DNA from: Escherichia phage vB_EcoM_D4
Sequence record: PP886228
Direction: 5' to 3' (one strand)
DNA length: 64,000 nt
The notes under the pieces are model-generated. The model was not told the DNA's origin. It saw nothing but the letters and a program-made list of their open reading frames with translations, and ran no database searches. Below are positions 12,024 to 64,000 of the stretch, piece after piece. Numbering within the stretch: the stretch's first letter is position 1; the number at the start of each line of letters is the position of its first letter. The position numbers and the translations under genes were made by a program.

Positions 12024-14561
12024 ATGGCAGATTACAAATTGAGTCAGTTAAACTCAATCGACACAATTCGTTCAGAAGACCTATTGCACATCAGAGTTAA
12101 GAAAAGACCTGAAATGTTGGGTGACGAAGACCGTAGAATGACCTATCAAGACTTCTTAGCATCTTTTAAACTTGAAAGATTTGTTCAGATTGCTGGTAGT
12201 ACTATGACAGGTGACTTAGGGATTGTTAAGTTACTTTATGGTGGTAAGGCAGTATTTGACCCAACAGGCTCTTCTGAGGTTACTATTGGGGATATTTTAA
12301 AGACTTTTAAAATTAATTCAAATGGGCTTAAACTCACTATTGCAGATGCCACAAGGTCGGCAACTGTTTATCATACTTTGAACAAACCAAGCCCTAATGA
12401 ACTTGGCATGAGAACTAATGAAGAGAATGATGCAAGATATGCAAGGCTTGCTGTTACAAACACATTCTCTGGAACTCAGAACATTCAAGGTGATGCTAAC
12501 TTACTTCGCCTTAGAAACCGAAATGCAAACAATGCACAATACATTGAAGGTGTAAACCTAGATGGTTCAGCTAGATGGTGGGTTGGTATTGGTAGCAATG
12601 GTTCTGACGAAGTAAAACTGTACAATAACAAATACAACTCAGTCTTGACTGTTGCAAGTAATATCTCTGTTAATAAATCTTTAGCAATCACTGGACAAGT
12701 TCAACCTTCAGATTTCTCTAACTTAGATGCTAGATACTTCACTCAGACAGTTGCTAATCAGAGATTTGCACAGTTAGCTGGCAATAATACTTTTACAGGT
12801 GCTAACACTTTCACTAGCCTTGTTGTTAAGAAGAATGCTAATGCTATTACTTTGCAGAATACTGATACAAGTACAGCACTTTACATTCTCGGTAAGAAGT
12901 CTGATGGAACAAATAAATGGTATGTTGGTACAGATTCTGACGAGACACGTCTGAACATTTATAACTACCTTACAGGTTCACAGGTTTCACTAGGTACTAC
13001 TATTGGTATCAATAAGACTGTGCAAATCACTGGACAAGTTCAACCTTCGGATTGGGCTAATATCGATTCTAGATATATTCCGGCAGCAACATTAAGTACG
13101 ATTGCAAGAACTAATGCTGCTAATACATTCTCTGCACAACAGGTTATCAACGCTGATGGTGAAGCTCTTGCGTTAAAAGCAAAAACTGCAACGTCATTAT
13201 TTATTAGAGGTAAGGATGTTGATGGAACCAGCAAGTGGTATGTTGGTAATGGTGATGCCAGTGATATCTTAAACCTGTATAACTACAAGACAGGTAAAGG
13301 GCTTAACATTGGTTCAGTATTTGAAATGAATGCAACTTTAGCAATCACTGGACAAGTTCAACCTTCTGATTGGGCTAATATTGATGCAAGATACTTTACG
13401 CAAAGTGCTAGTGATGGTAGATACCTGAGAGTCAGAAGTACTGGCTTCAATAATGGAAACGTTGAAAAGTGGGCTAAAATTGCTACTGTCGTTATGCCGC
13501 AATCCGCATCTACTGCGGTGATTGAAGTGTTTGGTGGGTCTGGTTTTAATGTTAACGCACCACACCAAGCAGGTAAGTGTGAGATTATTTTACGAACATC
13601 AAACAATAACCCAAAGGGTTTAAATGTTGTAGCTTGGAGAACCGCAGAGAATACCATTGTCACAGATATTGGTTATGTTAACACATCTGGCGACACTTAT
13701 GATATTTACTGTAGGGTCGGTACGTACCAAAATGGTACAACATCAAGAGTTCAATCTTCTAGCAATGCAAGTGTGCAGCTATTTGAAGTCCCACAAACGT
13801 TTGATGATGCCCCACAAGGTATTGTGAAGGGTACAATTGCAAAATACTACACAAGTTTGCAAAAGCCAACCCCTTCAGATATCGGTGCATATACTAAAGC
13901 TGAAACTGACCAGAAAATTGCAGAAGCAATCAGTGACTCTACAGACCTGAATAAAATCTATCCAGTCGGTATTGTGACGTGGTTTAACAGTAATGTTAAC
14001 CCTAATACAGCACTTCCTGGTCTAACTTGGACGTACCTGAACAATGGTGTTGGCAGAACTATTAGAATTGCAGCAGCAAATGGCTCAGATGTTGCTACAA
14101 CTGGTGGTTCAGACTCTGTAACGTTATCTGTTGGTAACTTACCTTCACACACGCATAGTTTCTCTGCTACCACTTCATCATTTGATTATGGTACTAAGAC
14201 TTCTAGCACAACTGGTAACCATAACCACAACAGGGGGACTATGGAGATTACTGGTACAGTAGGTTACTTCAGAAGTGATTCTAGCAGCTTCTACACAGCA
14301 AGTGGTGCATTCACACTTGGTAGTTCAACTGCTTCTAAAGGTTTTACTGGTTCTAACTTCACTTATGGTATCCCTGCTAACTTCAATGCGTCAAGAACTT
14401 GGTCTGGTGTAACGAATACAACAGGTAACCACAGCCACACTGTTGGTATTGGTGCTCACAGCCACACAGTTAGCGGTAACACAGGTGGTACTGGTTCTGG
14501 TTCAGCATTTAGTGTTACTAACCAGTTCTACAAGTTAATGGCTTGGGTAAGAACTGCTTAA
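12024..14561 (+). CDS. long tail fibre protein
   Basis: Start moved to ATG 12024 (MADYKLSQ); three tandem repeats of about 115 aa each ending ITGQVQPSDWANIDARYFTQ; C-terminal HxH-rich domain ending AWVRTA like previous gene. Confidence 0.6.
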   Translation: MADYKLSQLNSIDTIRSEDLLHIRVKKRPEMLGDEDRRMTYQDFLASFKLERFVQIAGSTMTGDLGIVKLLYGGKAVFDPTGSSEVTIGDILKTFKINSNGLKLTIADATRSATVYHTLNKPSPNELGMRTNEENDARYARLAVTNTFSGTQNIQGDANLLRLRNRNANNAQYIEGVNLDGSARWWVGIGSNGSDEVKLYNNKYNSVLTVASNISVNKSLAITGQVQPSDFSNLDARYFTQTVANQRFAQLAGNNTFTGANTFTSLVVKKNANAITLQNTDTSTALYILGKKSDGTNKWYVGTDSDETRLNIYNYLTGSQVSLGTTIGINKTVQITGQVQPSDWANIDSRYIPAATLSTIARTNAANTFSAQQVINADGEALALKAKTATSLFIRGKDVDGTSKWYVGNGDASDILNLYNYKTGKGLNIGSVFEMNATLAITGQVQPSDWANIDARYFTQSASDGRYLRVRSTGFNNGNVEKWAKIATVVMPQSASTAVIEVFGGSGFNVNAPHQAGKCEIILRTSNNNPKGLNVVAWRTAENTIVTDIGYVNTSGDTYDIYCRVGTYQNGTTSRVQSSSNASVQLFEVPQTFDDAPQGIVKGTIAKYYTSLQKPTPSDIGAYTKAETDQKIAEAISDSTDLNKIYPVGIVTWFNSNVNPNTALPGLTWTYLNNGVGRTIRIAAANGSDVATTGGSDSVTLSVGNLPSHTHSFSATTSSFDYGTKTSSTTGNHNHNRGTMEITGTVGYFRSDSSSFYTASGAFTLGSSTASKGFTGSNFTYGIPANFNASRTWSGVTNTTGNHSHTVGIGAHSHTVSGNTGGTGSGSAFSVTNQFYKLMAWVRTA

Positions 14562-17836: not shown

Positions 17837-18136
17837 TTAATCTGCCAACCTTAAATTAAAATTAACACCAAATTTTTCACATACTTCCAACATAAACTTA
17901 AGAGAAACATTACCAGTGAGATTGATTATGTTGGATACACGAGACTGAGAGATACCACAAATTTTAGCAACTTGCTCTTGAGAAAGGCCTCTGGATTTAA
18001 TCTCTCTCTTAAAACGATGTGCAACGAAGTCTCTCATTTCGTCTACATCCATTGGACAAATATAACTCTCCATTTCAGCCTCTCTGTCAGCCTCCCAATC
18101 ATCTTGTGGAGCATAAGGGTCAAAAACCTCATTCAT
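17837..18136 (-). CDS. helix-turn-helix DNA-binding protein
   Basis: QEQVAKICGISQSRVSNI resembles XRE-type HTH; start set to internal ATG 18136 with RBS. Confidence 0.4.
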   Translation of the reverse strand: MNEVFDPYAPQDDWEADREAEMESYICPMDVDEMRDFVAHRFKREIKSRGLSQEQVAKICGISQSRVSNIINLTGNVSLKFMLEVCEKFGVNFNLRLAD

Positions 18137-20684: not shown

Positions 20685-21821
20685 TTATTCGTAGTCTCGA
20701 ATAACGAGGCCAACAGGAAACTGTAAAGAACCCTTACGAGTCATCTTCTGGAACTGAACCGTTAAAGGCTTCCCAATAAACTCTTCAGGATGTTCAGCAA
20801 GATACTGTTTCTTCTCATGAGTAGTCTTCCATGAGACATCTACAAAGACGTTAGGAAGAGTCTCTACAACGAACTTGCCATGACCACGCTTATCAGTCTT
20901 TACACCAGTCACTTTAAATTCTTCAGTGTGCATCTTCTTGTGCTTAATCAAGAAGTACGAACGGTGACAACACTCATAGAAGGAGTCTTCAGAGATTGAA
21001 CGGTACATTGCACCTTCAAACTTAGCTTCAACCCACTTATCATGAGCTTCATCAAACTCTTCCCAAGAATTTACACGACGAGACTTAACAGGAACAACTT
21101 TACAGCCATCTCTGAAGTCATTCAATGGTGAAGTCTCAATGATATCTCTACGCTCAGGCCACGTCTTAGTGCTGTCACAGATGTCGTACCAGTAAAACTG
21201 GAGTAGATGTCGGTCTGGATTGTCAGCATTCTTAATCATAGACACAATATCTTCTAAGTCCCAACCATGAGCATAAATCTCACCATCAAAGTCTTCGACT
21301 TGTGGATGCAATTTAAGCAACAAAAGCAAATCTGGGATTAGTTCTGCTGGGACGTTGTAAACAGCATTCTCACGAGAATAAGCCGTGAAGCTAACTGAAT
21401 CAGCATCTCTTGAAATTCTACAACGTACACCATCAAGTTTTGGTTGAGCATCAGCAGGGAATATCAAATACTTTGCATGACTCACCTTTGCAGCATCATG
21501 AGCAAGCTGTACACCTACCTTCTCAGTATTCTGTGCAGACTCTTTTGTGTAAGCATAGCCTTTGCGGTCAATTTGCTTTTTATACTTAGCAGCAACTTCA
21601 AAGAGAGCTTGCTGTTCAGCGTTACGCTCATTCTTTTTACCGATGTTTTTCGGTTCTGCTGTGTACTCTTCAAACATCATCTTGCCATTTTCTTTACCGT
21701 AGGTTGTAATAACTTTGTCGCCTACAGCAACGCATGACCATACGTTGAAAGAGCCATCTTTATTTTGTTTGTACAGTATTGTCATTTTATTCCTCTGAGT
21801 GATACCAAGTGTTGCAAGCAT
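20685..21821 (-). CDS. ATP-dependent DNA ligase
   Basis: Ligase motif I KLDGVR, motif III FDGEIY, EGAMYR and LIKHKK downstream in correct order. Confidence 0.7.
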   Translation of the reverse strand: MLATLGITQRNKMTILYKQNKDGSFNVWSCVAVGDKVITTYGKENGKMMFEEYTAEPKNIGKKNERNAEQQALFEVAAKYKKQIDRKGYAYTKESAQNTEKVGVQLAHDAAKVSHAKYLIFPADAQPKLDGVRCRISRDADSVSFTAYSRENAVYNVPAELIPDLLLLLKLHPQVEDFDGEIYAHGWDLEDIVSMIKNADNPDRHLLQFYWYDICDSTKTWPERRDIIETSPLNDFRDGCKVVPVKSRRVNSWEEFDEAHDKWVEAKFEGAMYRSISEDSFYECCHRSYFLIKHKKMHTEEFKVTGVKTDKRGHGKFVVETLPNVFVDVSWKTTHEKKQYLAEHPEEFIGKPLTVQFQKMTRKGSLQFPVGLVIRDYE

Positions 21822-23034: not shown

Positions 23035-23240
23035 AGTAAACTCTCAATATTTACACGCTCACCTTTTAAGTAGCCTGTCTTATCTTTTGCGATTTTACCT
23101 CCAGCAATAAAGATATCTACTCTACGTAGAACTTCAGGGTTTACCCTAGAACTACTGCAAATGACAATAAGCATACTTTCAATCTCTTTTTGAGAATACC
23201 CAGCACATTGCAACTGTACTTCAATCTCTGAAAGTGTCAT
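23031..23240 (-). CDS. small protein, paralogue family A
   Basis: Paralogue of ORF 22616-22843. Confidence 0.4.
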   Translation of the reverse strand: MTLSEIEVQLQCAGYSQKEIESMLIVICSSSRVNPEVLRRVDIFIAGGKIAKDKTGYLKGERVNIESLL

Positions 23241-23301
23241 GTGACCTCCTATACAAGATACAGTATAAGGTACTCTTCCATGAGCACCTTGTCAATATTA
23301 A

Positions 23302-26001
23302 TTAGTGTACTTCAAGCCAGCTTTTACCAACCTTACCAGTACCTGTTACAAGTGTTTCTTTCTTAAGACCTAAGTTCTTAGAAGCTTGCCCATAATACCA
23401 GTCAGTAACTGCTTTCACTTCTGCCGTCATACTTTCTGGACATTCCCAACTCGTTTCATCGTGATATGCGCAGAGCAAGCGAGCACCAATAGCTGGTTGA
23501 CGACCATTCAACTTCATCAAACCTTCGTCAATCATACGACGACAAGCAAGGTTAATTGCCTCATTTTGAATCTGAGCCTCTGAACCCATCAAAAGATAGT
23601 TCAACAGTTTGTGTGGAGATTTACACCACAACCAAGCTCCAGCAACCTTTACAAAACCCCCTTTAGAGATTGCAGCAGTCTTACCAAACACCTCTTCAAG
23701 TGCTTTTTTAGTCGCTTTGTAGTCAGCTTCCAAGTCATCAAGCAGCTTCTTAATTTTAGGCAAACGAATAAAGTAAGTCTGTTTAGTCAGTGCACCTTCC
23801 TGAGTAGTTGCAGCTTTAATCGTCTTAGCAAACTTCTCATCACCTGCACCGAACAGCAGTGCATAGATACCATTCTTAGCTTTCTTACGACCCTTACTAA
23901 TCTCATGAAGAAGATTCTCATCCTGAGTAGCTCGGCAAGTCAAGATATCCTGCTCATCATTCAAGCTAAAGTAAATACTGTTCAGTGTGTGTGCATCAGT
24001 CCCTGAATAGACAACGTAAAGGTCATTCTCAGAGTCATAGCGTAGGTACTTATCAATCTCTGGATTGAGGTACTCATCAAAGTGTTTGCAGTAATAGCGT
24101 CCATCTTCTTGACGAATAAACTCAATCTCTTCTTTACCTTGCGTTACCGCTTTGGTGAAGTCTTTGTCACCCATAAAGTTACAAAGAAGAACTAGCTGGG
24201 CTGAGTTCATGTCTACAGAGACAACGTTAGTACCTTCTTCACAAATCCACACTGCCCTCATTGGTTCCCCATAGACAGCAGCACCAGACGGTACGTTTAC
24301 AATACCATACTGTGTCATACGCCCAGTTGAAGTACCAAATACCATTGCACCAGCACTAAGGCGACCATCAGGACGAATCTGGTTCAGCCAACCTTTTTCA
24401 TCATCCTTTGAGTTCTCAATAGTTCTGCGTCGGTGCATCAAAGTATAGTACTTAGCAATCTTCTGTCCAAGCTCACCTTCAATCGTATCATAAGATGATT
24501 CAGTAAGCTTTGGTGAAGTCCTAATCAGACAAGGTTCAAGTAAATCTGTGTACTTCTTCACAGACCAGTTATGCTCAATGTACTGGACACCTTCATGTTC
24601 AACATAACTCAACCCACACCGTTCAACCATCTCCTGCCACTTAGGATGCTTTGTAATCATCTTTTTGTTGTCTTTGAAACGACAAACTTTGACAGGGCGA
24701 CCGTCTGAATCTTTCTTGTAGTTCCAGTCATCTGGAATCCAACCAACTGATTTCAAATAGTCTTTAACAACTGCTACCTGAGTCATACGAGAAACTTCGA
24801 ACTCAATTGGTGTATATGGTGCATCAATCAAACCTGTGTAGCGACTTGACTCAAGCTCAAAGTGGTTAACAACATGGCTGTTATAGTACTTCACAGTTTT
24901 AACTGTTTTTACTGGCTTCCAATCTTTGCATTTCTTACCAATCTTTGCATTCAACTCATTGCAAATTGCACGAGCATCCTTCATTGCTACAAAACCTTCC
25001 TTGTACTCTTCACCAGTTACAGAGTTGGTTGGTGTATAGCAATTCCGCTTTTCAATGTTAAAAATCTTTGTAGTTGGCTTACCAAATGGCTTGATTTCAT
25101 ATGTCTGCATCTCACCGTTACGTACCTGCTGACGATACTTTGTCTTAGGGTACTTGGTAATTCTCTTCAATCCATCTGCATGCCCGAATGCTTCAACATA
25201 CTCATTCCAAGCTTTTGCAAACTCTTCTCCAGTGACTTTACCTTTGGTCTTAATAGTTGGTGGAAGGTGTGGTTCAACTTCTGAAGCAAGCTCATTAGTC
25301 AACTTGTCAAGTTCCTTTACATGAAACTCCATAAGTTCTTTATCAGCTTTCCAACCATTGATAGCTTGTTGACTCATCCAGAAAGATGTTTCTTTAGCTC
25401 GCATGTAGGTTTCATAAGTATCTACGCCACACTTCTTCAGCTTGAGATATTCATTATCCAGTGCGCGTTTAGTTTTGGCGTTAATACGGATATCTTCTAC
25501 AACACGAGTGAAGATTTCTGCATTCCACACACCCCAATGTTCAATCTCTGGTTTACGTACACCAACACGAGCACCCCATGCTGCCAAGCCATGAGCGCCT
25601 TTATAGCCTTTTGGAGTTGGTCTATCCATCCACTGAACACGAGACTGGATAAGAGAATCCTGAAAGAAATTACTCCACGGCTTACACTTTGGATTATCAA
25701 AGTTCCACAAATCAGGTGCAATGTGATTGAAAACCCACCAGTCATATCCCAGACCATTATGGATGCAAAGTCGTTTTGCCTTTAACGCAAACTCAACACC
25801 TTCACGCAAGCCACCCTTAATGTACTTGGTATACTTGTGACCGAGGATAGGTTCATCTGTAAAGACCCATACAGGCGGCTCTTCATCGTCAGATTTATAG
25901 TCTGCGAAAGCCATTACGTGCACTTTAGTGAACTCAAGGAGTAAACCATCAGTTTCTGTATCACCAACTAAATGTAAGTTTTTAAAATCTACGTTTTCCA
26001 T
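23302..26001 (-). CDS. DNA polymerase, family A (Pol I-like) with 3'-5' exonuclease
   Basis: Exo motif DTETDGL; polymerase motifs RKKAKNGIYALLFG (motif B-like) and YHDE (motif C); start set at ATG 26001 (MENVDF) with SD gagggag. Confidence 0.8.
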   Translation of the reverse strand: MENVDFKNLHLVGDTETDGLLLEFTKVHVMAFADYKSDDEEPPVWVFTDEPILGHKYTKYIKGGLREGVEFALKAKRLCIHNGLGYDWWVFNHIAPDLWNFDNPKCKPWSNFFQDSLIQSRVQWMDRPTPKGYKGAHGLAAWGARVGVRKPEIEHWGVWNAEIFTRVVEDIRINAKTKRALDNEYLKLKKCGVDTYETYMRAKETSFWMSQQAINGWKADKELMEFHVKELDKLTNELASEVEPHLPPTIKTKGKVTGEEFAKAWNEYVEAFGHADGLKRITKYPKTKYRQQVRNGEMQTYEIKPFGKPTTKIFNIEKRNCYTPTNSVTGEEYKEGFVAMKDARAICNELNAKIGKKCKDWKPVKTVKTVKYYNSHVVNHFELESSRYTGLIDAPYTPIEFEVSRMTQVAVVKDYLKSVGWIPDDWNYKKDSDGRPVKVCRFKDNKKMITKHPKWQEMVERCGLSYVEHEGVQYIEHNWSVKKYTDLLEPCLIRTSPKLTESSYDTIEGELGQKIAKYYTLMHRRRTIENSKDDEKGWLNQIRPDGRLSAGAMVFGTSTGRMTQYGIVNVPSGAAVYGEPMRAVWICEEGTNVVSVDMNSAQLVLLCNFMGDKDFTKAVTQGKEEIEFIRQEDGRYYCKHFDEYLNPEIDKYLRYDSENDLYVVYSGTDAHTLNSIYFSLNDEQDILTCRATQDENLLHEISKGRKKAKNGIYALLFGAGDEKFAKTIKAATTQEGALTKQTYFIRLPKIKKLLDDLEADYKATKKALEEVFGKTAAISKGGFVKVAGAWLWCKSPHKLLNYLLMGSEAQIQNEAINLACRRMIDEGLMKLNGRQPAIGARLLCAYHDETSWECPESMTAEVKAVTDWYYGQASKNLGLKKETLVTGTGKVGKSWLEVH

Positions 26002-26061
26002 TTTTACTCCCTCTAAAATCATTAACCTCATACATTACTGCAAAAAATTATAAAAAGCAAG

Positions 26062-26130
26062 TTGACAATGTACTTGACAAGGTGTTAATCTTTGCGAAGT
26101 GGGTTTTTACTTAAAAGGTTACTTAACAGT
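26062..26130 (+). promoter_or_regulatory. conserved element with tandem TTGACA boxes
   Basis: TTGACAatgtacTTGACAaggtg...; near-identical element at 61513-61580. Confidence 0.4.
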
Positions 26131-26197
26131 TTAACTATACAGATACTTTAAAACTCTTAAAAGATTATTTAATAGCTTTTAAAAAGCTTTAAAGTAT

Positions 26198-26214
26198 AAC
26201 GTATAGAATACGTT
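26198..26214. promoter_or_regulatory. perfect palindrome AACGTAT-aga-ATACGTT (operator-like)
   Basis: 7-bp inverted arms separated by 3 bp in the divergent region between polymerase and + block. Confidence 0.35.
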
Positions 26215-26258
26215 AAGATAAAAGATTAAAACTTAATAGTTACTTAAAAGAGGCTTAC

Positions 26259-41345: not shown

Positions 41346-41354
41346 AACTTGACA

Positions 41355-41393
41355 AGGTGGTGTGAGTCTTGATAGGCTTACATCACCTTTTTT
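41355..41393 (+). terminator. terminator hairpin with T-run
   Basis: aggtggtgt ... acatcacct stem then TTTTTT; preceded by TTGACA. Confidence 0.4.
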
Positions 41394-41499
41394 ATTGGAT
41401 GTTAGACATGGCAGAGAGTATTATTGGGTTGTTCATAGGTTCTGTCTTACTAGGGTTCTTTTTAGGACTTTCTTATTGTGAATTAAGAGGCAAGTTAAA

Positions 41500-56828: not shown

Positions 56829-56857
56829 TTGACTCTCTGACTATGGTTATTTAATAT
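56829..56857 (+). promoter_or_regulatory. sigma70-type promoter heading the small-gene array
   Basis: TTGACT, 17-bp spacer, TAATAT; followed by ATCAACGGGG leader hairpin and conserved RBS. Confidence 0.55.
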
Positions 56858-56917
56858 TTGCATCAACGGGGGGCGATGACCTCCCAGCTAACTAACCTTA
56901 AACTAGGAGATTCAAAA

Positions 56918-57298
56918 ATGGCTTATCGTGCACCTAAATTCATCAACAAAGACAACTTTCGCAACGTACTGGAGAAGGCACTTGATGAAAAATTTAACGG
57001 TAAAATAATTGTTGTTCATGCGTTCAATTTCAAGTATGATATCAACGGGAATAAAATCAACCATTACACGGCAACCATGTTAGATGGTACGCTATCAAGT
57101 GAAAAAGCCGTACTGAATGCACTGGCAGGACGTGGTAAAAACCTGATAAAATGCGATAAGAGACGTTATCAGGGCGGCGCATATGGTTACGATGATGCTG
57201 TTTACCATCTTGAAAATATGGGCTATTCAGTGGAAAAAGCTGGAATATCTCAAATAATCGGCAGTGACGGCTATGTGACAATTTTCAAAATTAACTGA
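56918..57298 (+). CDS. array gene 1, hypothetical
   Basis: Start at ATG following conserved ctaggagattcaaaaATG; 126 aa. Confidence 0.45.
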   Translation: MAYRAPKFINKDNFRNVLEKALDEKFNGKIIVVHAFNFKYDINGNKINHYTATMLDGTLSSEKAVLNALAGRGKNLIKCDKRRYQGGAYGYDDAVYHLENMGYSVEKAGISQIIGSDGYVTIFKIN

Positions 57299-57306
57299 TA
57301 AAGTAC

Positions 57307-57341
57307 TTTACAAGGGGCTTATAGTTCGATAAAGTAAGCCC
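57307..57341 (+). promoter_or_regulatory. class-B promoter/hairpin module
   Basis: TTTACA, 17-bp spacer, TAAAGT; palindrome ggggctta...taagcccc spans spacer and -10. Confidence 0.45.
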
Positions 57342-57386
57342 CAGATAAAGAGCTTTACCACTAAATCCTAAATTGGAGATTCTAAA

Positions 57387-57644
57387 ATGGCTATTATCAA
57401 AAACGTTGTAATTACTGCAAAAACTCGTGATGACGCTCGCATTATGGCTAAAAAGTTATGCGGGAAAGTGATTGACAACGGAAAAAAATCTGCTGTAAGA
57501 TGGGGCGTGAAAGCTGATAAGCAACTAACCTTAAAACGTAATTCAAGCAACCTTTTTAAAGGTGTGGAAACACTTGGTAAAGTGAACGTATTCACTAAGC
57601 AAGGTTATAAAATGCACTTATCATTAACTGGTAAATTAATCTGA
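57387..57644 (+). CDS. array gene 2, small basic protein
   Basis: 85 aa after conserved RBS. Confidence 0.45.
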   Translation: MAIIKNVVITAKTRDDARIMAKKLCGKVIDNGKKSAVRWGVKADKQLTLKRNSSNLFKGVETLGKVNVFTKQGYKMHLSLTGKLI

Positions 57645-57652
57645 TAAAGTAC

Positions 57653-57687
57653 TTTACAAGGGGCTTAAAAGCTGATATCTTAAGCCC
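57653..57687 (+). promoter_or_regulatory. class-B promoter/hairpin module
   Basis: TTTACA, 17 bp, TATCTT; palindrome ggggcttaa...ttaagcccc. Confidence 0.45.
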
Positions 57688-57734
57688 CAGATAAAGAGCT
57701 TTACTACATTAACCTTAAACTAGGAGATTCAAAA

Positions 57735-58247
57735 ATGAAAACTGTAGACGCTACCTTTGAAGTTGTAAAAGAAAAATTTTCCATCATTTACGAAGCTGTT
57801 AACTGCTACGAAGCAAGCCATAGCCTTGATAATTGGAAATTTACAGATAATCATCAAGGTGGCGTGACTATTAAAAACCCCAACTATCGTTATAATGCTT
57901 TTAAATATGCAATCCCTTTACATTACAGCCTTAAACAGCTTTCGAGTGACTATGCAAAACAAGGCCGGGAAAACCCTTCAAAAGAGGCTTATATCAGCTT
58001 ACAAAGAGAACTAGAAAGGGATTTAGAGGCTTCAGCATATAATATTGCCGCGAAAGTTGTGGATGCAAACGGTAAAACGGTTTTAGAAAGTTTTTATACT
58101 GGTTACGCTTTTGATTGGGCATACAGTGACGGCGAAGATTTAGAGGATAGACTAAAAGAGGAGGTGAGCAATTCAGGCGCAGAATCTGAAGTATTAGAAC
58201 GCTTGGAAGCATTAAAAGATTCAGTGATGAATATCTTTAAGAACTAA
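57735..58247 (+). CDS. array gene 3, hypothetical
   Basis: 170 aa. Confidence 0.45.
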   Translation: MKTVDATFEVVKEKFSIIYEAVNCYEASHSLDNWKFTDNHQGGVTIKNPNYRYNAFKYAIPLHYSLKQLSSDYAKQGRENPSKEAYISLQRELERDLEASAYNIAAKVVDANGKTVLESFYTGYAFDWAYSDGEDLEDRLKEEVSNSGAESEVLERLEALKDSVMNIFKN

Positions 58248-58256
58248 ATAGATTTC

Positions 58257-58290
58257 TTTACACGGGGCTATCAAGCTGATAAGATAGCCC
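58257..58290 (+). promoter_or_regulatory. class-B promoter/hairpin module
   Basis: TTTACA, 17 bp, TAAGAT; palindrome ggggctatc...gatagcccc (compensatory arm changes). Confidence 0.45.
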
Positions 58291-58336
58291 CAGATAAAGA
58301 GCTTTATTAACTAACCTTAAACTAGGAGACTCAAAA

Positions 58337-58633
58337 ATGAAATTATCAAATAAAGTTAGGGAAAATCTAAGCAAGTTACTCAACAAAATTGATTTTATCG
58401 AGACATCAAGGAATAGTCATGATGTTATGGAATGGTTACACGGAAAAATCAAAGGCCGTCGTGTAGTGATTTGCTTATGGAATAGTTGCAGGGAATATAA
58501 AAAACCTGTATTACAAGTCAATATCTATGATGATACTTTTAAAAGCCATGTAAAGTCTAAAAGTGATTTATTAGAATCCTATGAGATAACTGTAAATGGC
58601 AAAGTATCACGTAAAGAGGAAACACCATGTTAA
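58337..58633 (+). CDS. array gene 4, hypothetical
   Basis: 98 aa. Confidence 0.45.
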   Translation: MKLSNKVRENLSKLLNKIDFIETSRNSHDVMEWLHGKIKGRRVVICLWNSCREYKKPVLQVNIYDDTFKSHVKSKSDLLESYEITVNGKVSRKEETPC

Positions 58634-58959
58634 TGACTGGTATCACTGCAATCATTGCCATTTTCGCGCTATATAAGGCATATAAAGCCTATAATCTAGC
58701 AAATAAGGCAATCACACAGCAGGTTAGCAATAGCCTTGTAGAAAGCTTTCTAGGGCGTCTCAGTGATGAGCAAATAAAGCGGTTAGAAATGAGCTTCAGA
58801 TTTCAATCGAGAACTTATCAAATCAGCGACATTTTCAAAGATGATTTTCAGCTTGTCGATGATTATAACTCCCTGATAAATGCTTTAAATATCAGTGACT
58901 TAAAAGACTATTACGCTGTAATTGTCCAAGAATTGAGCAAACGAAAAAATTTATCTTGA
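58627..58959 (+). CDS. array gene 5, membrane-anchored protein
   Basis: N-terminal TM helix GITAIIAIFALY; overlaps previous gene, no own promoter. Confidence 0.4.
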   Translation: MLMTGITAIIAIFALYKAYKAYNLANKAITQQVSNSLVESFLGRLSDEQIKRLEMSFRFQSRTYQISDIFKDDFQLVDDYNSLINALNISDLKDYYAVIVQELSKRKNLS

Positions 58960-59012
58960 TTTTGGTTTTTAAAACAAGTAAATTACTAATCAACGGGGAG
59001 GGAATGACCTTC
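58956..59012 (+). promoter_or_regulatory. class-A promoter plus leader hairpin
   Basis: TTGATT, 17 bp, TAAATT, then atcaacggggaggg aatgac cttcccc. Confidence 0.5.
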
Positions 59013-59050
59013 CCCCACTAAATAAAGTCCTTAAACTAGGAGATTCAAAA

Positions 59051-59323
59051 ATGTATACTACTAACAATGGTCGCACTTTAAACGTAACCCTGCGCCACTA
59101 TGTGAACGGTGTAATGCACTTCGAGGATTTACAAGCTGAACAACATATACTAGATTGGCAACTTGCAGGACTCCAAAAAACTGCTACCGGATACGGGAAA
59201 AAGATTCCAACTAGCTGGAAAGTATACTACGAAGGACGTTTGCGCAGAATTTATCAAGATGTATGCAGCAATAGCGCATCAAGTTACATCATGGTAAAAG
59301 GTGAAAAATTACACTTAGCATAA
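59051..59323 (+). CDS. array gene 6, hypothetical
   Basis: 90 aa. Confidence 0.45.
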   Translation: MYTTNNGRTLNVTLRHYVNGVMHFEDLQAEQHILDWQLAGLQKTATGYGKKIPTSWKVYYEGRLRRIYQDVCSNSASSYIMVKGEKLHLA

Positions 59324-59328
59324 AGTAC

Positions 59329-59363
59329 TTTACAAGGGGCTTATAGTTCGATAAAGTAAGCCC
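59329..59363 (+). promoter_or_regulatory. class-B promoter/hairpin module
   Basis: Identical to module at 57307. Confidence 0.45.
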
Positions 59364-59408
59364 CAGATAAAGAGCTTTATCACTCAATCCTAAATTGGAG
59401 ATTCTAAA

Positions 59409-59813
59409 ATGGCTATTAATAATCGTGAGTTATCAATCTTAAAAGCACGTTTGACCGTTAACCGGATTAATGTTATTACATCATCAGCACCTGATGAGAC
59501 ATTGCACAACATTATCGGGAAGATTCAAAGTGTTATCTTAGACGTTGAAAGCGTAAAAAACTCACTGGCTGACGTTGCAGCAGGTATCACGCTAGACGGT
59601 GCACAATATGAAATGGCTGACATGTTAGGCAAATCTAAGGTAATGAATAAAGAGCTTGATTTAAAAATGTTCCGCTTTGCCGTGAAAGTGTGGCTATCTG
59701 TCGAGTATGACGCAAATTTTGCAATCGCTGACTTTTTCGCAACATGGTTGCAACGTAATTTAACAAATCATGATTTTCGTGATATCTGCGACGTAATTTA
59801 CGCAGAACTTTAA
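59409..59813 (+). CDS. array gene 7, hypothetical
   Basis: 134 aa. Confidence 0.45.
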   Translation: MAINNRELSILKARLTVNRINVITSSAPDETLHNIIGKIQSVILDVESVKNSLADVAAGITLDGAQYEMADMLGKSKVMNKELDLKMFRFAVKVWLSVEYDANFAIADFFATWLQRNLTNHDFRDICDVIYAEL

Positions 59814-59824
59814 AAATTTCTCTT

Positions 59825-59881
59825 GATTTTGGTTTTTAAAACAAGTAAATTATTAATCAACGGGGAGGGAATGACCTTCCC
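59825..59881 (+). promoter_or_regulatory. class-A promoter plus leader hairpin
   Basis: Identical to module at 58956. Confidence 0.5.
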
Positions 59882-59916
59882 CACTAAGTAAAGTCCTTAA
59901 ACTAGGAGATTCAAAA

Positions 59917-60120
59917 ATGGCTATTATTAACGGCTTAAACATTGAAACTACTCACATCAAAGATATCAAAGTTGGTGATATAGTCCTTTTTCACGGCGTA
60001 GAAAAAACCGTCACTGAAAAGGATATCAAGGAGGATTCATTCATGGGCCGGACTCTCTTCGGTGATTCCTATTGCTTAGGTTACCTTGCAGTTTTAAAAG
60101 TTGTCAAAAATAACCGTTAA
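59917..60120 (+). CDS. array gene 8, hypothetical
   Basis: 67 aa. Confidence 0.4.
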   Translation: MAIINGLNIETTHIKDIKVGDIVLFHGVEKTVTEKDIKEDSFMGRTLFGDSYCLGYLAVLKVVKNNR

Positions 60121-60124
60121 AGTA

Positions 60125-60159
60125 CTTTACAAGGGGCTTATAGTTCGATAAAGTAAGCC
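60125..60159 (+). promoter_or_regulatory. class-B promoter/hairpin module
   Basis: Identical to module at 57307. Confidence 0.45.
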
Positions 60160-60206
60160 CCAGATAAAGAGCTTTACCACATTAATCCTAAACTGGAGAT
60201 TCAAAA

Positions 60207-60749
60207 ATGAAATGCTTTCACGGTACTACTCAAGAAAACTTCGTCAACCTGATTAATAACGGTGATAAACCATCAGGCGCATGGAATTGTTCGGATATGG
60301 ATGGCAATTTTTACGTTTATCCAGAAAATAAAATCTATGGCGACGATGAGGAAGAAATAATCTCTGAAGGCATTCAACAAGCTTTAGGTAATGCCACTAT
60401 AACGGCAGCTTTTCAGATGAAAACTCAAAACATTGTTATCTTGGAACTTGATATTCCAGAAGATGAGTTGAATGATGATTATTCTTGTGATAATATGTCG
60501 AGTGTGGCAAGTTTTACAGAGTATTTTGATATAAGCTGGATTAAAAAGGTTTATATCACTGAATTTAATGCTATGTTTTCACCTTTTTGTCTTCCTTCAC
60601 TGGATAACCCGAACTTAAACTATCTTGATGAGTCTCTGGAACTTCTCGCTAAAAGTGTTCAGCAATCGGACAGTATTCAGGTTTTTTGTGACATCATGGA
60701 TACACTAACAGGAAACATTGCAGAAGAGGATTTGAAGAGTTTTTTCTAA
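60207..60749 (+). CDS. array gene 9, acidic protein
   Basis: 180 aa, Asp/Glu-rich throughout. Confidence 0.45.
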   Translation: MKCFHGTTQENFVNLINNGDKPSGAWNCSDMDGNFYVYPENKIYGDDEEEIISEGIQQALGNATITAAFQMKTQNIVILELDIPEDELNDDYSCDNMSSVASFTEYFDISWIKKVYITEFNAMFSPFCLPSLDNPNLNYLDESLELLAKSVQQSDSIQVFCDIMDTLTGNIAEEDLKSFF

Positions 60750-60781
60750 AAACCTATGCAATCACCTTATAAACACTGATT

Positions 60782-60801
60782 AGCCCCTCACAGGGGCTTT
60801 T
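60782..60801 (+). terminator. terminator-like hairpin
   Basis: agcccctc acaggggct then TTT, followed by aggagg RBS. Confidence 0.4.
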
Positions 60802-60815
60802 AGGAGGCTTTAATC

Positions 60816-61049
60816 ATGCTTACAACCATTTACCTCATCCTTTCTATCTGTAATGGTCATTCGTGTGACTTTAAAGGGCTTGAAGAGTTTACAGGAAGTA
60901 AAGAAAATGCTATTCAAGTGTGCCAGATAGCAAGGCAAGACTATCCCGCCAGTGATGATATACAATGTTACTTTAAGACAGAAGATGAAGACGGTGTCTA
61001 TTTTGACAGCGTAGACGGTCAATATGAAATTATCATTGAAAAAGACTAG
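60816..61049 (+). CDS. array gene 10, hypothetical
   Basis: 77 aa, hydrophobic N-terminus. Confidence 0.4.
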   Translation: MLTTIYLILSICNGHSCDFKGLEEFTGSKENAIQVCQIARQDYPASDDIQCYFKTEDEDGVYFDSVDGQYEIIIEKD

Positions 61050-61067
61050 ACAAGCCTGATAAAAGTC

Positions 61068-61100
61068 TGTAAATTGTCAATCAACGGGAGGTAATAACCT
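61068..61100 (+). promoter_or_regulatory. class-A -10 and leader hairpin
   Basis: TAAATT then atcaacgggagg taataa cctcccc; -35 weak. Confidence 0.4.
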
Positions 61101-61138
61101 CCCCACTAAGTAAAGTCCTTAAACTAGGAGATTCAAAA

Positions 61139-61480
61139 ATGGCTTATGTAACCGTAATTACCGACAAAGCTGGCTCATCTTGGTCAACTCAAGTAAGCGA
61201 TAAGATGTCACCTATGAAGTGCCTAAAATACTTTGAGCAATGGAACAAAGGCGAGGATGTCAGCCCCTTTCAAGTGATGCAGATTATCCATACAGATAAC
61301 GAAGGGAATAAAACTGTTTTGAATAGTGAGTACTACGCAACCCGATTTGAAACGAGATGTAAAGCAATGAAGCTTTTGCGTGAGTCTGGTTATTCTCATA
61401 TTGCCTCACTAATCTGGGATGACCTGCTAAAAAATCAGCGTATCAGCTATGTAAAACCTGAAAAAATATTCATCAGTTAA
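61139..61480 (+). CDS. array gene 11, hypothetical
   Basis: 113 aa. Confidence 0.45.
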   Translation: MAYVTVITDKAGSSWSTQVSDKMSPMKCLKYFEQWNKGEDVSPFQVMQIIHTDNEGNKTVLNSEYYATRFETRCKAMKLLRESGYSHIASLIWDDLLKNQRISYVKPEKIFIS

Positions 61481-61512
61481 TCAACAACTTACAAAAAACT
61501 TTTAAAAAGATG

Positions 61513-61580
61513 TTGACAATCCCTCTTGACATTGGTAACTTTGTTCGAGGGGGTTTATCTAAAAGGGATTAACTTAAAAG
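61513..61580 (+). promoter_or_regulatory. conserved element with tandem TTGACA boxes (second copy)
   Basis: TTGACAatccctcTTGACAttggtaactttgttcgaggggg; aligns with 26062-26130. Confidence 0.4.
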
Positions 61581-61608
61581 ATTCTTTATAGATAAACTTA
61601 AAAAATTG

Positions 61609-61668
61609 CTTGCAATCAACTATCAAAACAAGTAAATTACTAATCAACGGGAGGGATAACCCCCCCCC
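61609..61668 (+). promoter_or_regulatory. class-A promoter plus leader hairpin with poly-C
   Basis: TTGCAA, 17 bp, TAAATT, atcaacgggaggg ataa cccccccc. Confidence 0.5.
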
Positions 61669-61815
61669 ACTAAATAAAGTCCTTAAACTAGGAGATTCAA
61701 AAAATGAACAAGTTCAAAGCTATCAACTTCATTCGTTCCCCCCCCACTAAATAAAGTCCTTAAACTAGGAGATTCAAAAAATGAACAAGTTCAAAGCTAT
61801 CAACTTCATTCGTTC
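61661..61815 (+). repeat. tandem duplication (78 + 77 bp) of leader-RBS-start codon segment
   Basis: Segment from poly-C tract through ...atgaacaagttcaaagctatcaacttcattcgttc occurs twice back to back; copies differ by one C. Confidence 0.8.
61704..61754 (+). pseudogene. truncated 16-codon duplicate of array gene 12 start
   Basis: MNKFKAINFIRSPPTK then stop; created by the duplication. Confidence 0.5.
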
Positions 61816-62311
61816 AAATAGTGTTATGTCAAAGCCTGTTAAAGATACCTATGAATTTCGTTGCAATGGGGTGCATTTTGCAACCATTACCAAATCAGAA
61901 AACGGAGCTTATTACATCCATCGCCGTAATGTTGCAACCGTTGTTGTCTCTCACTTTATGCAAGCTGTCGCGGAACTTCTCCCGATGTTTTTAGGGCTTT
62001 ACTTGGATGAGTGTAAAAACGTTCACAATCACGTTAAAAACCTTTTAAACAGTTATAAAATGGCTTATGAACGTTCTATCAAGTCCTTAAACAAGTTTTA
62101 CAACGCACCTAAAAATACTGTATCAATGGCCTACGATGTAAATGGTGAGGCGGTGAGTCTCTTTGAAGTGGAAGAAATCAAGCTGCATGATTTACGCCCT
62201 AGCGGTGACTCTAAGACTCTCGGTGAAGGTTTAACGTTCAATATCAAGAACTTAGAGAAAACTTTAAAAGATATTGAAAAAGATATTGACGAGACAACCA
62301 AAAATCTGTAA
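61781..62311 (+). CDS. array gene 12, hypothetical
   Basis: 176 aa. Confidence 0.45.
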   Translation: MNKFKAINFIRSNSVMSKPVKDTYEFRCNGVHFATITKSENGAYYIHRRNVATVVVSHFMQAVAELLPMFLGLYLDECKNVHNHVKNLLNSYKMAYERSIKSLNKFYNAPKNTVSMAYDVNGEAVSLFEVEEIKLHDLRPSGDSKTLGEGLTFNIKNLEKTLKDIEKDIDETTKNL

Positions 62312-62345
62312 ATTGTCAATCAACGGGAGGGAATGACCTTCCCCA
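62286..62345 (+). promoter_or_regulatory. class-A promoter plus leader hairpin
   Basis: TTGACG, 17 bp, TAAATT inside the 3' end of gene 12, then atcaacgggaggg aatgac cttcccc. Confidence 0.45.
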
Positions 62346-62376
62346 CTAAGTAAAGTCCTAAACTGGAGTTATCAAG

Positions 62377-62640
62377 ATGGAAAACGTAGAATTAACCGCA
62401 CTATTGCAGATTGCAACTGATAAAGAGGATGTAGCACTGTTCCACCGCATTGAAAGCGATTTGTTCAATGGTGAAATCATTAAAGAATCTTACGAAGTTG
62501 TCGGATTCAAAGATGGTAAATCATTTGGATTCTTTGACCTCGACAAAGGCAAAGCGGTTACAAAATATGATGTTTTATCTTGTGAGATTCTGACAAAATA
62601 CAACGAAAAAAGGCTTGCAACATACGACAACATGCAGTAA
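62377..62640 (+). CDS. array gene 13, hypothetical
   Basis: 87 aa. Confidence 0.45.
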   Translation: MENVELTALLQIATDKEDVALFHRIESDLFNGEIIKESYEVVGFKDGKSFGFFDLDKGKAVTKYDVLSCEILTKYNEKRLATYDNMQ

Positions 62641-62672
62641 ATTACTAATCAACGGGGAGGGATAACCTCCCC
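62615..62672 (+). promoter_or_regulatory. class-A promoter plus leader hairpin
   Basis: TTGCAA, 17 bp, TAAATT, atcaacggggaggg ataa cctcccc. Confidence 0.5.
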
Positions 62673-62706
62673 ACTAAGTAAAGTCCTTAAACTAGGAGAT
62701 TCAAAA

Positions 62707-62955
62707 ATGGCAACTATCCGCGCAACTGTCAATGCTTATGGCTGTTATACTCTGGACGTTAAATTTGATATTGGTGGAACTGATGAGTGTTTTTCATTAG
62801 TGAAGACAGTTATCAAGCAAGTTATCCCAGATTATAACCCTACTGATGACTTCTGGAAAGATGCTGTAAAAGAGGCATTAAACGACGAGCATCACTATCA
62901 TTACTGGGGTGACTTGATTATCTCACTGTACTACAATAAACAAGGTTACAACTAA
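62707..62955 (+). CDS. array gene 14, hypothetical
   Basis: 82 aa. Confidence 0.45.
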   Translation: MATIRATVNAYGCYTLDVKFDIGGTDECFSLVKTVIKQVIPDYNPTDDFWKDAVKEALNDEHHYHYWGDLIISLYYNKQGYN

Positions 62956-62965
62956 TCGCCGCAAC

Positions 62966-63017
62966 GGGGCTAAATAGCCCCAGATACCTTCACAGCCCCA
63001 TTTAAGGGGCTTTTTTA
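62966..63017 (+). terminator. double hairpin terminator closing the array
   Basis: ggggctaaatagcccc then agcccca ttt aaggggct followed by TTTTTT. Confidence 0.6.
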
Positions 63018-63369
63018 CGTCTATGTAATAGCCTCTATACAATCCCTTTCCTTTCCTTTCCAGAATCTTACTAGACCTTAAAAGCAATAACTCTATAGTC
63101 TACTCTATAATCTCTTATCAAATCAACTTAAATAAAAGCCCATAACCCGAAAGGGAAGGGTAACCGTTTAAACGCTCTATAAAGCTCTATAACAGCCTTA
63201 TCAACCTAACTTAAGGGATTGCATTAACTCACCCTAAAAAGCCCTTTATAAAGCTTCCTAGAGCCTTAAAAGAATCTTATAAGGGTGTAAGCTTTATTAT
63301 CTCGTTAGTTCCTTGTGAATAACTAGAAAGGGCTTGTTAGTGTCTTAAAAGTATGTTATAGGGGCTATA

Positions 63370-63413
63370 AAGTTACTTCAAAGTTACGTAAAAGTGGTTT
63401 AAAAGTTACGTAA
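63370..63413. repeat. repeated palindromic GTTACGTAA motif
   Basis: aagttac x3, with two full copies of aagttacgtaaa 22 bp apart. Confidence 0.5.
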
Positions 63414-63433
63414 ATGCTAGCCCCCTTAACATT

Positions 63434-63515
63434 TTCTTAACAATTTCTTAACAACCCCTACATAGTTATGCTTGTTAGCAACTTGTTAGCCCCTTGTTAA
63501 ATCTCTGTTAAAACC
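63434..63515. repeat. convergent TGTTAAG-family iterons
   Basis: ttcttaaca x2 (inverted orientation) facing cttgttagc, cttgttagc, cttgttaaa, ctgttaaaa. Confidence 0.55.
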
Positions 63516-63715
63516 ACGTAAAAGCCTTGTAAGAGTCTTTAGCATAGCCTTTAAAGCCCCTGTAAAGCCCTATAAATAGCTTTCTGTATAGTTGGGGTGT
63601 AATTACTAGGGAGAGACTAAAAAGAGCTTATAAGGAGCTATAGAAAGCTTTTAAGAGGGCTATTTAAAAGGTCACTAAGAAAGGAAAGGGAACGATAAGA
63701 AAAGAGATAGTGACC

Positions 63716-64000
63716 ATGTTAATAGCTTGTTAAAAAGATTAAACACTTGTTAGGAACTTGTTAATTATCTTAACAAAATAACTCTTTAAAATTAACTTGT
63801 TAGCTCTTGTTAGTCATCTGTTAAGATTCTATAAAGACCATGTAGCAACTGTTAAGAAACTGTTACACCCTTGTTAGTTCTGTTAAGAATCTGTTAAGAC
63901 CTCTGAAGAGATGTTAAGAGGTTGTAAGAACTGTTAAGAGATTGTTAAGGATATTTTAAAATTCTGCAAAGGGGATGTTACAGGGATGTTAAGGGCTACC
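63716..64000 (+). repeat. direct iteron array, consensus YTGTTAAG at about 10-11 bp spacing (runs to window end)
   Basis: About 20 copies: cttgttag, cttgttaat, tctgttaag, actgttaag, gatgttaag, attgttaag, gatgttac ... Confidence 0.7.

Follow-up and report, generated by a model that had tools for sequence, protein, structure and literature searches.

Candidate sigma-70 promoters with a doubled TTGACA hexamer in Felix O1-type phages

A 64,000-nt stretch of phage DNA (hereafter, the window) carries two copies, A and B, of an intergenic element in which the hexamer TTGACA occurs twice in tandem; a third copy, C, lies outside the window. The copies are homologous, share one geometry, keep both hexamers (box 1 upstream, box 2 downstream) invariant across three phage genera, and are placed upstream of co-oriented genes. 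We consider it likely that copies A and B, together with copy C, are paralogous promoters read by the sigma-70 RNA polymerase of the host. From the sequence, we infer where transcription would start at these sites and which role box 2 might play.

Homologous elements at the heads of rightward gene blocks

By its sequence, the window was assigned to a Felix O1-type myovirus of the genus Felixounavirus. Segment 25500-27000 was 100% identical to Escherichia phage vB_EcoM_I14.1 (PP892526.1) and matched 255 phage records, nearly all of them Felix O1-type. The header of PP892526.1 gives its taxonomy as Demerecviridae; Tequintavirus (T5-like), whereas the sequence itself is that of a Felixounavirus. 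Window positions equal PP892526.1 positions minus 25,435, and the two sequences are identical up to window position 12,110. A rightward structural block reaches ~15.2 kb and is followed by leftward genes from 15,243 to the start of the DNA polymerase gene at 26,001. The leftward block includes a gene (17837-18136, minus strand) for a 99-aa HTH_3 (XRE-type) protein, a candidate transcription regulator (Pfam E 3e-11). A long rightward block from 26,259 to ~62,955 then comprises replication, nucleotide metabolism, rIIA/B and many small ORFs, beyond which the DNA is gene-free and repeat-rich. This last region, from 62956-64000 into positions 1-1000 of PP892526.1, extends over ~1.6 kb and is dense in short repeats of the CTTGTTAG and CTGTTAAG types (17 copies each, on one strand, counting both terminal-repeat copies). 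The first ~580 nt of PP892526.1 are repeated at its end (offset 88,778), and the window runs across that end into the start of the record. Genome ends, a packaging site or iterons are probably located in this gene-free region.

Single TTGACA hexamers are not enriched in the window (73, with 69.8 expected). Pairs of the form TTGACA-N5-8-TTGACA were found only in copy A, as TTGACA-N6-TTGACA (26062-26079), and in copy B, as TTGACA-N7-TTGACA (61513-61531), with 0.16 expected. The earlier note had pointed out the resemblance of these two sites, and they proved to be true copies: a gapped local alignment scored 64, against 20.6±2.8 (maximum 33) in 500 shuffles, and an nhmmer profile built from copies A and B matched nothing else in the window, with E values near 1e-28 (Table 1). 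The homology covers ~113 nt, including two upstream A-tracts and ~55 nt downstream, and thus reaches further in both directions than the 57-70 nt first reported.

Copy A occupies the divergent intergenic region between the DNA polymerase gene (minus strand, ATG 26001) and the first gene of the long rightward block (ATG 26259). Copy B is placed in the small-ORF region, between ORF 61139-61480 and ORF 61781-62311. In PP892526.1, a genome nearly identical to the window, there are exactly three perfect double boxes, all of them on the plus strand, intergenic and upstream of co-oriented genes. The third, copy C, sits in the other divergent intergenic region and heads the tRNA and structural gene block. 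A fourth, diverged member (AAAAAG..AAAAAG-TTGACA-N6-TTGATA-N5-TAATAT, PP892526.1 10719) lies 147 nt ahead of the first tRNA gene. Copies A, B and C were all found in Felixounavirus, Suspvirus and Mooglevirus.

A leftward promoter candidate, TTGACT-N17-TACCAT (PP892526.1 8651-8656, minus strand, matrix rank 29), is arranged back to back with copy C and stands 26 nt upstream from box 1 of that copy. No equivalent of it adjoins copy A, and none of the leftward sigma-70 candidates for the polymerase operon in that region was convincing, the best matrix score being only 7.3.

A separate, ordinary promoter-like site, TTGCAA-N17-TAAATT, follows ~97 nt downstream of copy B and is part of a repeated early-gene cassette made up of a promoter, a GGGAGGG..CCCC hairpin and a conserved leader. 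The leader, CCTTAAACTAGGAGATTCAAAAATG, occurs in eleven copies (56850-62710) ahead of small early ORFs, in two types of cassette. One has TTTACA-N17-TAAAGT with an internal GGGGCTTA..TAAGCCCC hairpin (4 copies); the other has TTGATT or TTGCAA-N17-TAAATT followed by a GGGGAGGGAATGACCTTCCCC hairpin (at least 3 copies). Positions 61661-61814 form a perfect 77-nt tandem duplication (2.0 copies, 100% identity), which takes in a C8 run, the conserved translation leader and codons 1-11 of ORF 61781, and makes a 15-codon decoy ORF. It is absent from PP892526.1, where copy B is 192 nt from the ATG, compared with 268 nt here. It arose either during assembly, as an artefact, or through recent slippage at the C-run.

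The site at 41348, which had been listed as a third partial match, did not turn out to be a copy. Its profile E value was 13, it has no second box, A-tract or downstream homology, and it has no more in common with copy A than the 12-mer CTTGACAAGGTG, of which the window contains exactly two occurrences, or five with one mismatch allowed (0.5 expected). The site lies 4 nt after the nrdD stop codon, and its TTGACA abuts a 16-bp hairpin that begins at AAGGTG and is followed by UUUUUU (-26.2 kcal/mol, z -6.3), which has the appearance of an intrinsic terminator. The same stretch also scores as TTGACA-N18-TAGGCT (matrix rank 15). Similarly, TTGACAAGGTG with a hairpin follows the stop codon of the polymerase gene (23225-23300, at 23296, minus strand). 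The two sites of this kind (41354-41396 and 23225-23300) may be combined terminator-and-promoter junctions.

Table 1. Coordinates of the double-box elements and neighbouring features (window positions unless stated otherwise)
Feature	Position	Strand	Basis or remark
Copy A, double box	PP892526.1 51497 = window 26062	+	exact double-box match
Copy B, double box	PP892526.1 86948 = window 61513	+	exact double-box match
Copy C, double box	PP892526.1 8682 (outside the window)	+	exact double-box match
Copy A, full block	26041..26153	+	alignment score 64; nhmmer E 5e-29; gene map
Copy A, A-tracts AAAAAA..AAAAAG	26042..26057	+	sequence; 4 nt separate the second tract from box 1
Copy A, box 1 TTGACA, proposed -35	26062..26067	+	matrix rank 49 of 177,492; 18-nt spacer
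Copy A, box 2 TTGACA, in spacer (~-24..-19)	26074..26079	+	invariant; as -35, rank 5474
Copy A, TGt + TAATCT, proposed extended -10	26083..26091	+	TAGTCT in Mooglevirus
Copy A, predicted leader	26098..26258	+	predicted start ~26097-26098; invariant fraction 0.72-0.87
Copy B, full block	61492..61604	+	alignment; nhmmer E 3e-28
Copy B, A-tracts AAAAAA..AAAAAG	61493..61509	+	sequence
Copy B, box 1 TTGACA, proposed -35	61513..61518	+	matrix rank 18
Copy B, box 2 TTGACA, in spacer	61526..61531	+	as -35, rank 2921
Copy B, TGg + TAACTT, proposed extended -10	61533..61541	+	17-nt spacer; predicted start ~61548
Ordinary promoter-like site TTGCAA-N17-TAAATT	61610..61638	+	family D6
TTGACA + hairpin, not a family member	41349..41396	+	nrdD stop junction; nhmmer E=13; folding

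Anatomy and conservation of the element

We aligned 13 sequences from the three loci and three genera. All share the same order: an A-tract ending in AAAAAG, 3-4 nt, TTGACA, 6-7 variable nt, TTGACA, 4-6 nt and TAnnnT. Box 1 was TTGACA at 6/6 positions in every sequence, and TAnnnT was found 17-18 nt from it in 13/13. This hexamer reads TAATCT or TAGTCT at locus A, TAACTT at B and TAGGCT or TAGCCT at C. It matches TATAAT at 3/6 positions; the T at either end and the A never change, and the inner three letters differ (ATC, GTC, ACT, GGC, GCC), which is the way a sigma-70 -10 element would be expected to vary. A TG extension is present as TGt in copy A and TGg in Felixounavirus copy B, and is shifted by one position or absent in copy C and in copy B of Mordin. 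The UP element has the consensus AAAAAARNR at about -46 to -38. In copy A, AAAAAG is invariant in 5/5 genera-level sequences and resembles the proximal subsite of that element; it ends 3-4 nt before box 1 in A, B, C and the T4-like set described below.

It had been stated that neither copy has an obvious consensus -10 element at 17 bp. This holds only for the downstream box and for the consensus TATAAT; measured from the upstream box, copy A has TGtTAATCT with a spacing of 18 nt, and copy B has TGgTAACTT with one of 17 nt. With a rough sigma-70 matrix, whose frequencies follow the classical promoter compilations, 177,492 positions were ranked. The three copies took ranks 18, 20 and 49 when box 1 was used as the -35 hexamer, each being the top site of its own intergenic region, and ranks 426, 2921 and 5474 when box 2 was used. 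A consensus promoter scan did not call the sites of the copies, because it demanded a 4/6 match in each hexamer. Among the promoter-like sites of the phage, -35-like hexamers inside the spacer numbered 13/92 (8.9 expected), and the enrichment was not significant.

Both boxes were invariant (0/36 positions vary), compared with variation at 11/19 inter-box positions (Fisher p=6e-7). Of 258 phage records, 188 had copy A at 99% identity or more over 125 nt; for the 1.5 kb around it, the same threshold was reached in just 5 of 255. Across the three genera, 72-87% of positions were invariant in the 200 nt that run from the A-tract to the start codon, compared with 70-85% in the polymerase coding sequence and 40-68% in the downstream gene, and the value fell to 40% over the 40 nt that separate the A-tract from the ribosome-binding site of the polymerase gene. 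The pattern of substitutions and the matrix ranks suggest that box 2 is under selection and is not the -35 element of a second sigma-70 promoter.

The 160-nt leader predicted for copy A is 77% A+T, against 61% for the window; the leaders overall are 75-77% A+T. Past the predicted start, copies A and B have ~55 nt in common, with CGA(A)GNGGGTTT.. followed by (A)CTTAAAAG boxes, and a (C)T(T)AAAAGG motif is found in all three copies, ~12-22 nt beyond that start. The copy A leader holds ACTTAAAAG boxes at 26109 and 26242 and two palindromes. One of these, AGCTTTTAAAAAGCT (26174-26188), is nearly invariant across the three genera; the other, ACGTATAGAATACGT (26199-26213), becomes ATGTATAACATACAT in Mooglevirus, where pairing is kept by a compensatory change from C:G to U:A. 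Each palindrome could act either in the RNA, as a hairpin, or in the DNA, as the operator of a dimeric protein. The whole leader folded barely better than its shuffles (z -2.0), and Rfam gave no match at gathering score anywhere in the window. A boxA/nut-like candidate in this leader, CTCTTAA, was rejected as it is not conserved across genera.

Candidate functions of the two boxes

With host sigma-70 RNA polymerase as the reader, the alpha subunit would find a UP-type contact in the A-tract, which ends ~4 nt ahead of box 1; box 1 would serve as the -35 hexamer, and the weak TAnnnT 17-18 nt further downstream would serve as the -10, aided in copies A and B by the TG extension. Rightward transcription would then begin ~7 nt past the -10, at ~26098 in copy A and ~61548 in copy B. 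Copy A would serve the replication and nucleotide-metabolism block, copy B the last small ORFs of the same block, and copy C the tRNA and structural block. We speculate that box 2 might act as a second docking site for sigma region 4, giving more polymerase capture or easier release from the very strong upstream contacts. A contact of sigma region 4 with box 2 is proposed because the primary sigma factor is the one TTGACA reader known to be common to the enterobacterial hosts and to the hosts of the T4-like phages described below.

A reading of the sites as strong early promoters with a nonstandard -10 had been offered in the earlier note. Its promoter part agrees with the A-tract, the consensus -35 and the TG-extended TAnnnT at 17-18 nt of copies A and B, and likewise with their matrix ranks, their positions at the heads of co-oriented blocks and the single-box promoters of the outgroups. 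RT-PCR of Felix O1 does not establish early timing, with genes 41 and 97 peaking at 25 min and genes 21 and 22 at 5 min (PMC3185647). Several observations count against plain promoters. The -10 hexamers match TATAAT at only 3/6 positions and were missed by the consensus scan, the exact second TTGACA and the ~55 nt shared downstream by copies A and B exceed the needs of an ordinary promoter, copy C lacks a correctly placed TG, and the T4-like version of the element is aimed at the 3' end of a convergent gene, which is odd for a plain mRNA promoter.

At the polymerase locus of more distant relatives, single-box promoters were found, with TTGACA-N17-TAGGCT in Pectobacterium phage Arno162 and TTGACA-N17-TACATT in Erwinia phage phiEa21-4; both precede an A+T-rich leader with similar short motifs. 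Therefore, a standard promoter was apparently ancestral at this locus, and comparison of the sequences suggests that the second box was gained later, in the clade of Felix, Moogle and Susp phages.

In a pattern scan of viral contigs, AAAAAGTTG-TTGACA-AAGGGC-TTGACA, with a TATAGT-type hexamer after it, was detected in many uncultured T4-like phages. Neighbouring genes at this locus encode a helicase (in the cyanophage S-RSM4, a relative, this is uvsW) and gp55, the late sigma factor, with a small ORF between them, and also the equivalents of gp47 and gp46. To avoid motif-based selection, we re-sampled the loci by gp55 homology and obtained 68 unique upstream regions. Both exact boxes were present in 57 of these, and one exact box in 7 more (box 1 in 6/7). 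When the first box was exact or TTGACT, TAnnnT (consensus TATAGT) was exactly 17 nt away in 64/64, and the gap between the boxes was 6 nt in 50 and 5 nt in 14; the position of box 2 floats by ~±1 nt. The fixed 17-nt register speaks most strongly for box 1 as the -35 element and box 2 as a passenger of the spacer. Regions upstream of g55 in S-RSM4 and Melnitz have related but different arrangements and were left out of the evidence. One perfect double box (IMG/VR locus L025) lies inside a coding region (VDKALDKV) and was discarded as a chance match.

The T4-like element resembles that of the Felix O1 group in its layout, AAAAAG-TTG-TTGACA-N5-6-TTGACA-N4-6-TAnnnT. It differs in its near-consensus -10, TATAGT, in pointing into a convergent gene, and in its unrelated downstream sequence. 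A 27-nt core is identical to copy C of some Felixounaviruses, an identity largely imposed by the search pattern. The highly conserved T4-like candidate promoter (IMG/VR L135-L214; for example, L075 1560-1680, minus strand) starts 22-25 nt from the g55 start codon and faces away from g55, towards the small convergent ORF next after uvsW, into which it would read from the 3' end. Its product could be an antisense RNA, a source of transcriptional interference with g55, or an origin primer. In the literature searched, no description of a double-box element upstream of g55 was found, and nothing relevant on tandem or double TTGACA elements.

A stronger version, which we regard as doubtful, is that the double -35 is a distinct, selected promoter architecture that arose in, or was exchanged between, the Felix O1 group and uncultured T4-like phages, with box 2 read by sigma region 4. 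Box 2 might serve as a stepping stone for sigma region 4 while the polymerase breaks its very strong UP and -35 contacts at promoter escape, or as a second capture site that feeds the productive register. If true, such a role in capture or escape would make box 2 a promoter element with a kinetic function not described so far.

Somewhat less probable still, the tandem TTGACA could be an operator or activator site, at which a phage or host protein binds the direct repeat and switches the three units. The suggestion that the sites serve something other than sigma-70 alone found no positive support, though the second TTGACA could be a target for such a protein. In favour of this reading, neither hexamer varies while the intervening sequence drifts, at least one HTH_3 (XRE-type) protein is encoded in the phage genome, the authors of the Felix O1 genome describe its timing control as unknown (PMC3185647), and the want of a good leftward promoter for the polymerase operon near copy A (best score 7.3) suggests some non-standard control nearby. 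However, the repeat period differs between loci and lineages (11-13 bp), an unusual feature for a reader of two half-sites, XRE-type proteins usually bind inverted rather than direct repeats, and box 1 already suffices as a -35 element. The same repeat is found in unrelated uncultured T4-like phages; the primary sigma factor is the one TTGACA reader known to be common to most bacteria, which disfavours another shared factor without proving sigma-70.

It is rather improbable that box 2 is the working -35, with the downstream block replacing the -10 for a phage-modified polymerase or an alternative sigma factor. Copies A and B do share a block (CGAAGTGGGTTT in A, CGAGGGGGTTT in B) where the -10 of box 2 would fall, and in Arno162 the single TTGACA is followed by the -10 TAGGCT and then GGGGG. 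By contrast, copy C differs at this position (TATAAATACTTAG), as do the T4-like copies, and the block fits equally well as the discriminator and initial transcribed sequence of a box-1 promoter. No -10-like hexamer was found 16-18 nt downstream of box 2 in any copy, the matrix scores were poor (ranks 426 to 5474), and the authors of the Felix O1 genome found no polymerase-modifying proteins (PMC3185647).

We assign an equally low probability to the elements being transcription-activated replication origins, modelled on T4 oriF/oriG and the T7 primary origin, in which a strong promoter and an A+T-rich unwinding region would yield an R-loop primer. Copy A adjoins the DNA polymerase gene, and its leader is A+T-rich (77% against 61% for the window) and as conserved as coding sequence across the three genera; A+T-rich leaders are, however, also normal for phage 5' leaders. 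The minimum of the cumulative GC skew falls there as well (~26 kb), but this turn coincides with the switch of coding strand and is uninformative alone. The T4-like element runs antisense into the small gene between uvsW and g55, near the place of oriF in T4. Against this, three origins with different downstream sequences would be needed, and another promoter and a gene follow within 100 nt after copy B.

A neutral origin of the similarity, as the remnant of an intergenic duplication in which box 2 and the shared downstream sequence have no function, is hardly credible: duplicated intergenic cassettes are abundant in the early region, yet both boxes stay exact in three copies across three genera while their neighbours change, and copy A is more conserved than its flanking genes.

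Several further candidates were rejected. A sigma-dependent pause element, with a -10-like sequence 17 nt after box 2 as at lambda PR', was absent on inspection of the alignment. A leftward promoter read from the reverse complement (TTGTCA, 5/6 to TTGACA) would have spacings of 10 and 22 nt to TATAAT at 26047-26052, a hexamer not conserved in other genera. By eye and against consensus sequences, the copies shared no match to a DnaA box, Pho box, PmrA box, sigma-32 or sigma-E promoter; a partial sigma-E-like match, GGTAACTT-N16-TCTAA, was seen in copy B only and not in A or C.

Known promoters, earlier annotations and significance

Strong sigma-70 early promoters of virulent coliphages such as T4 and T5 combine UP-type A-tracts with a near-consensus -35 and an extended -10. 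The elements described here resemble them in having an A-tract next to a consensus TTGACA, a 17-18-nt spacer and, in two copies, a TG, and in heading gene blocks of a virulent phage without its own polymerase. They differ in their weak -10 (3/6), the second TTGACA in the spacer, and the ~55 nt of transcribed sequence shared by A and B. The sites of lambda CII and P22 C1 are also direct repeats that start with TTG and overlap the -35 region. However, the lambda CII site is TTGC-N6-TTGC with a 10-bp period, compared with 12-13 bp here and 11-12 bp in the T4-like set, and CII-dependent promoters have poor -35 elements, whereas here both units are full consensus -35 hexamers in a virulent phage. 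A CII-type promoter was rejected on the basis of period and consensus hexamers. At middle promoters of T4, the MotA box, (a/t)(a/t)(a/t)TGCTTtA centred at -30, replaces the -35 element. No copy has TGCTT at that position, and a promoter of this type was likewise rejected; no motA or asiA homologues were reported by the authors of the Felix O1 genome (PMC3185647).

Members of the family had been predicted piecemeal. In Felix O1, Whichard et al. 2010 predicted promoter P41 as TTGACA-N15-TATAGG at 21515-21541 (PMC3185647), which is copy C. They noted nothing comparable in the 96-97 (polymerase) intergenic region, where copy A lies, and described temporal control as unknown (PMC3185647). In phage AYO145A (KR014248), the equivalents of B and C are annotated as 'promoter'. 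These registers differ from the one proposed here, with N15 in P41 and, at the B site of AYO145A, box 2 paired with a 24-nt spacer; in neither annotation was the second box noted or were the sites linked to each other. The literature search yielded neither transcription-start nor RNA-seq data on a Felix O1-type phage. New beyond these predictions are the paralogy of the three sites and the candidate promoter in the polymerase intergenic region, and also the proposed -10 register and the finding that the second TTGACA is invariant and recurs in T4-like phages.

Typing and biocontrol of Salmonella and E. coli make use of Felix O1-type phages, whose transcription programme is essentially unmapped. 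A candidate promoter can now be placed in the polymerase intergenic region, where the genome paper found none, and a family of three members, with a fourth, diverged one, heads the major rightward transcription units. The family offers precise targets for start-site mapping and for the design of strong, compact promoters. A second TTGACA inside the spacer is an unusual, not a revolutionary, detail; its recurrence in T4-like phages poses a small and cleanly testable question on how sigma-70 promoters function.
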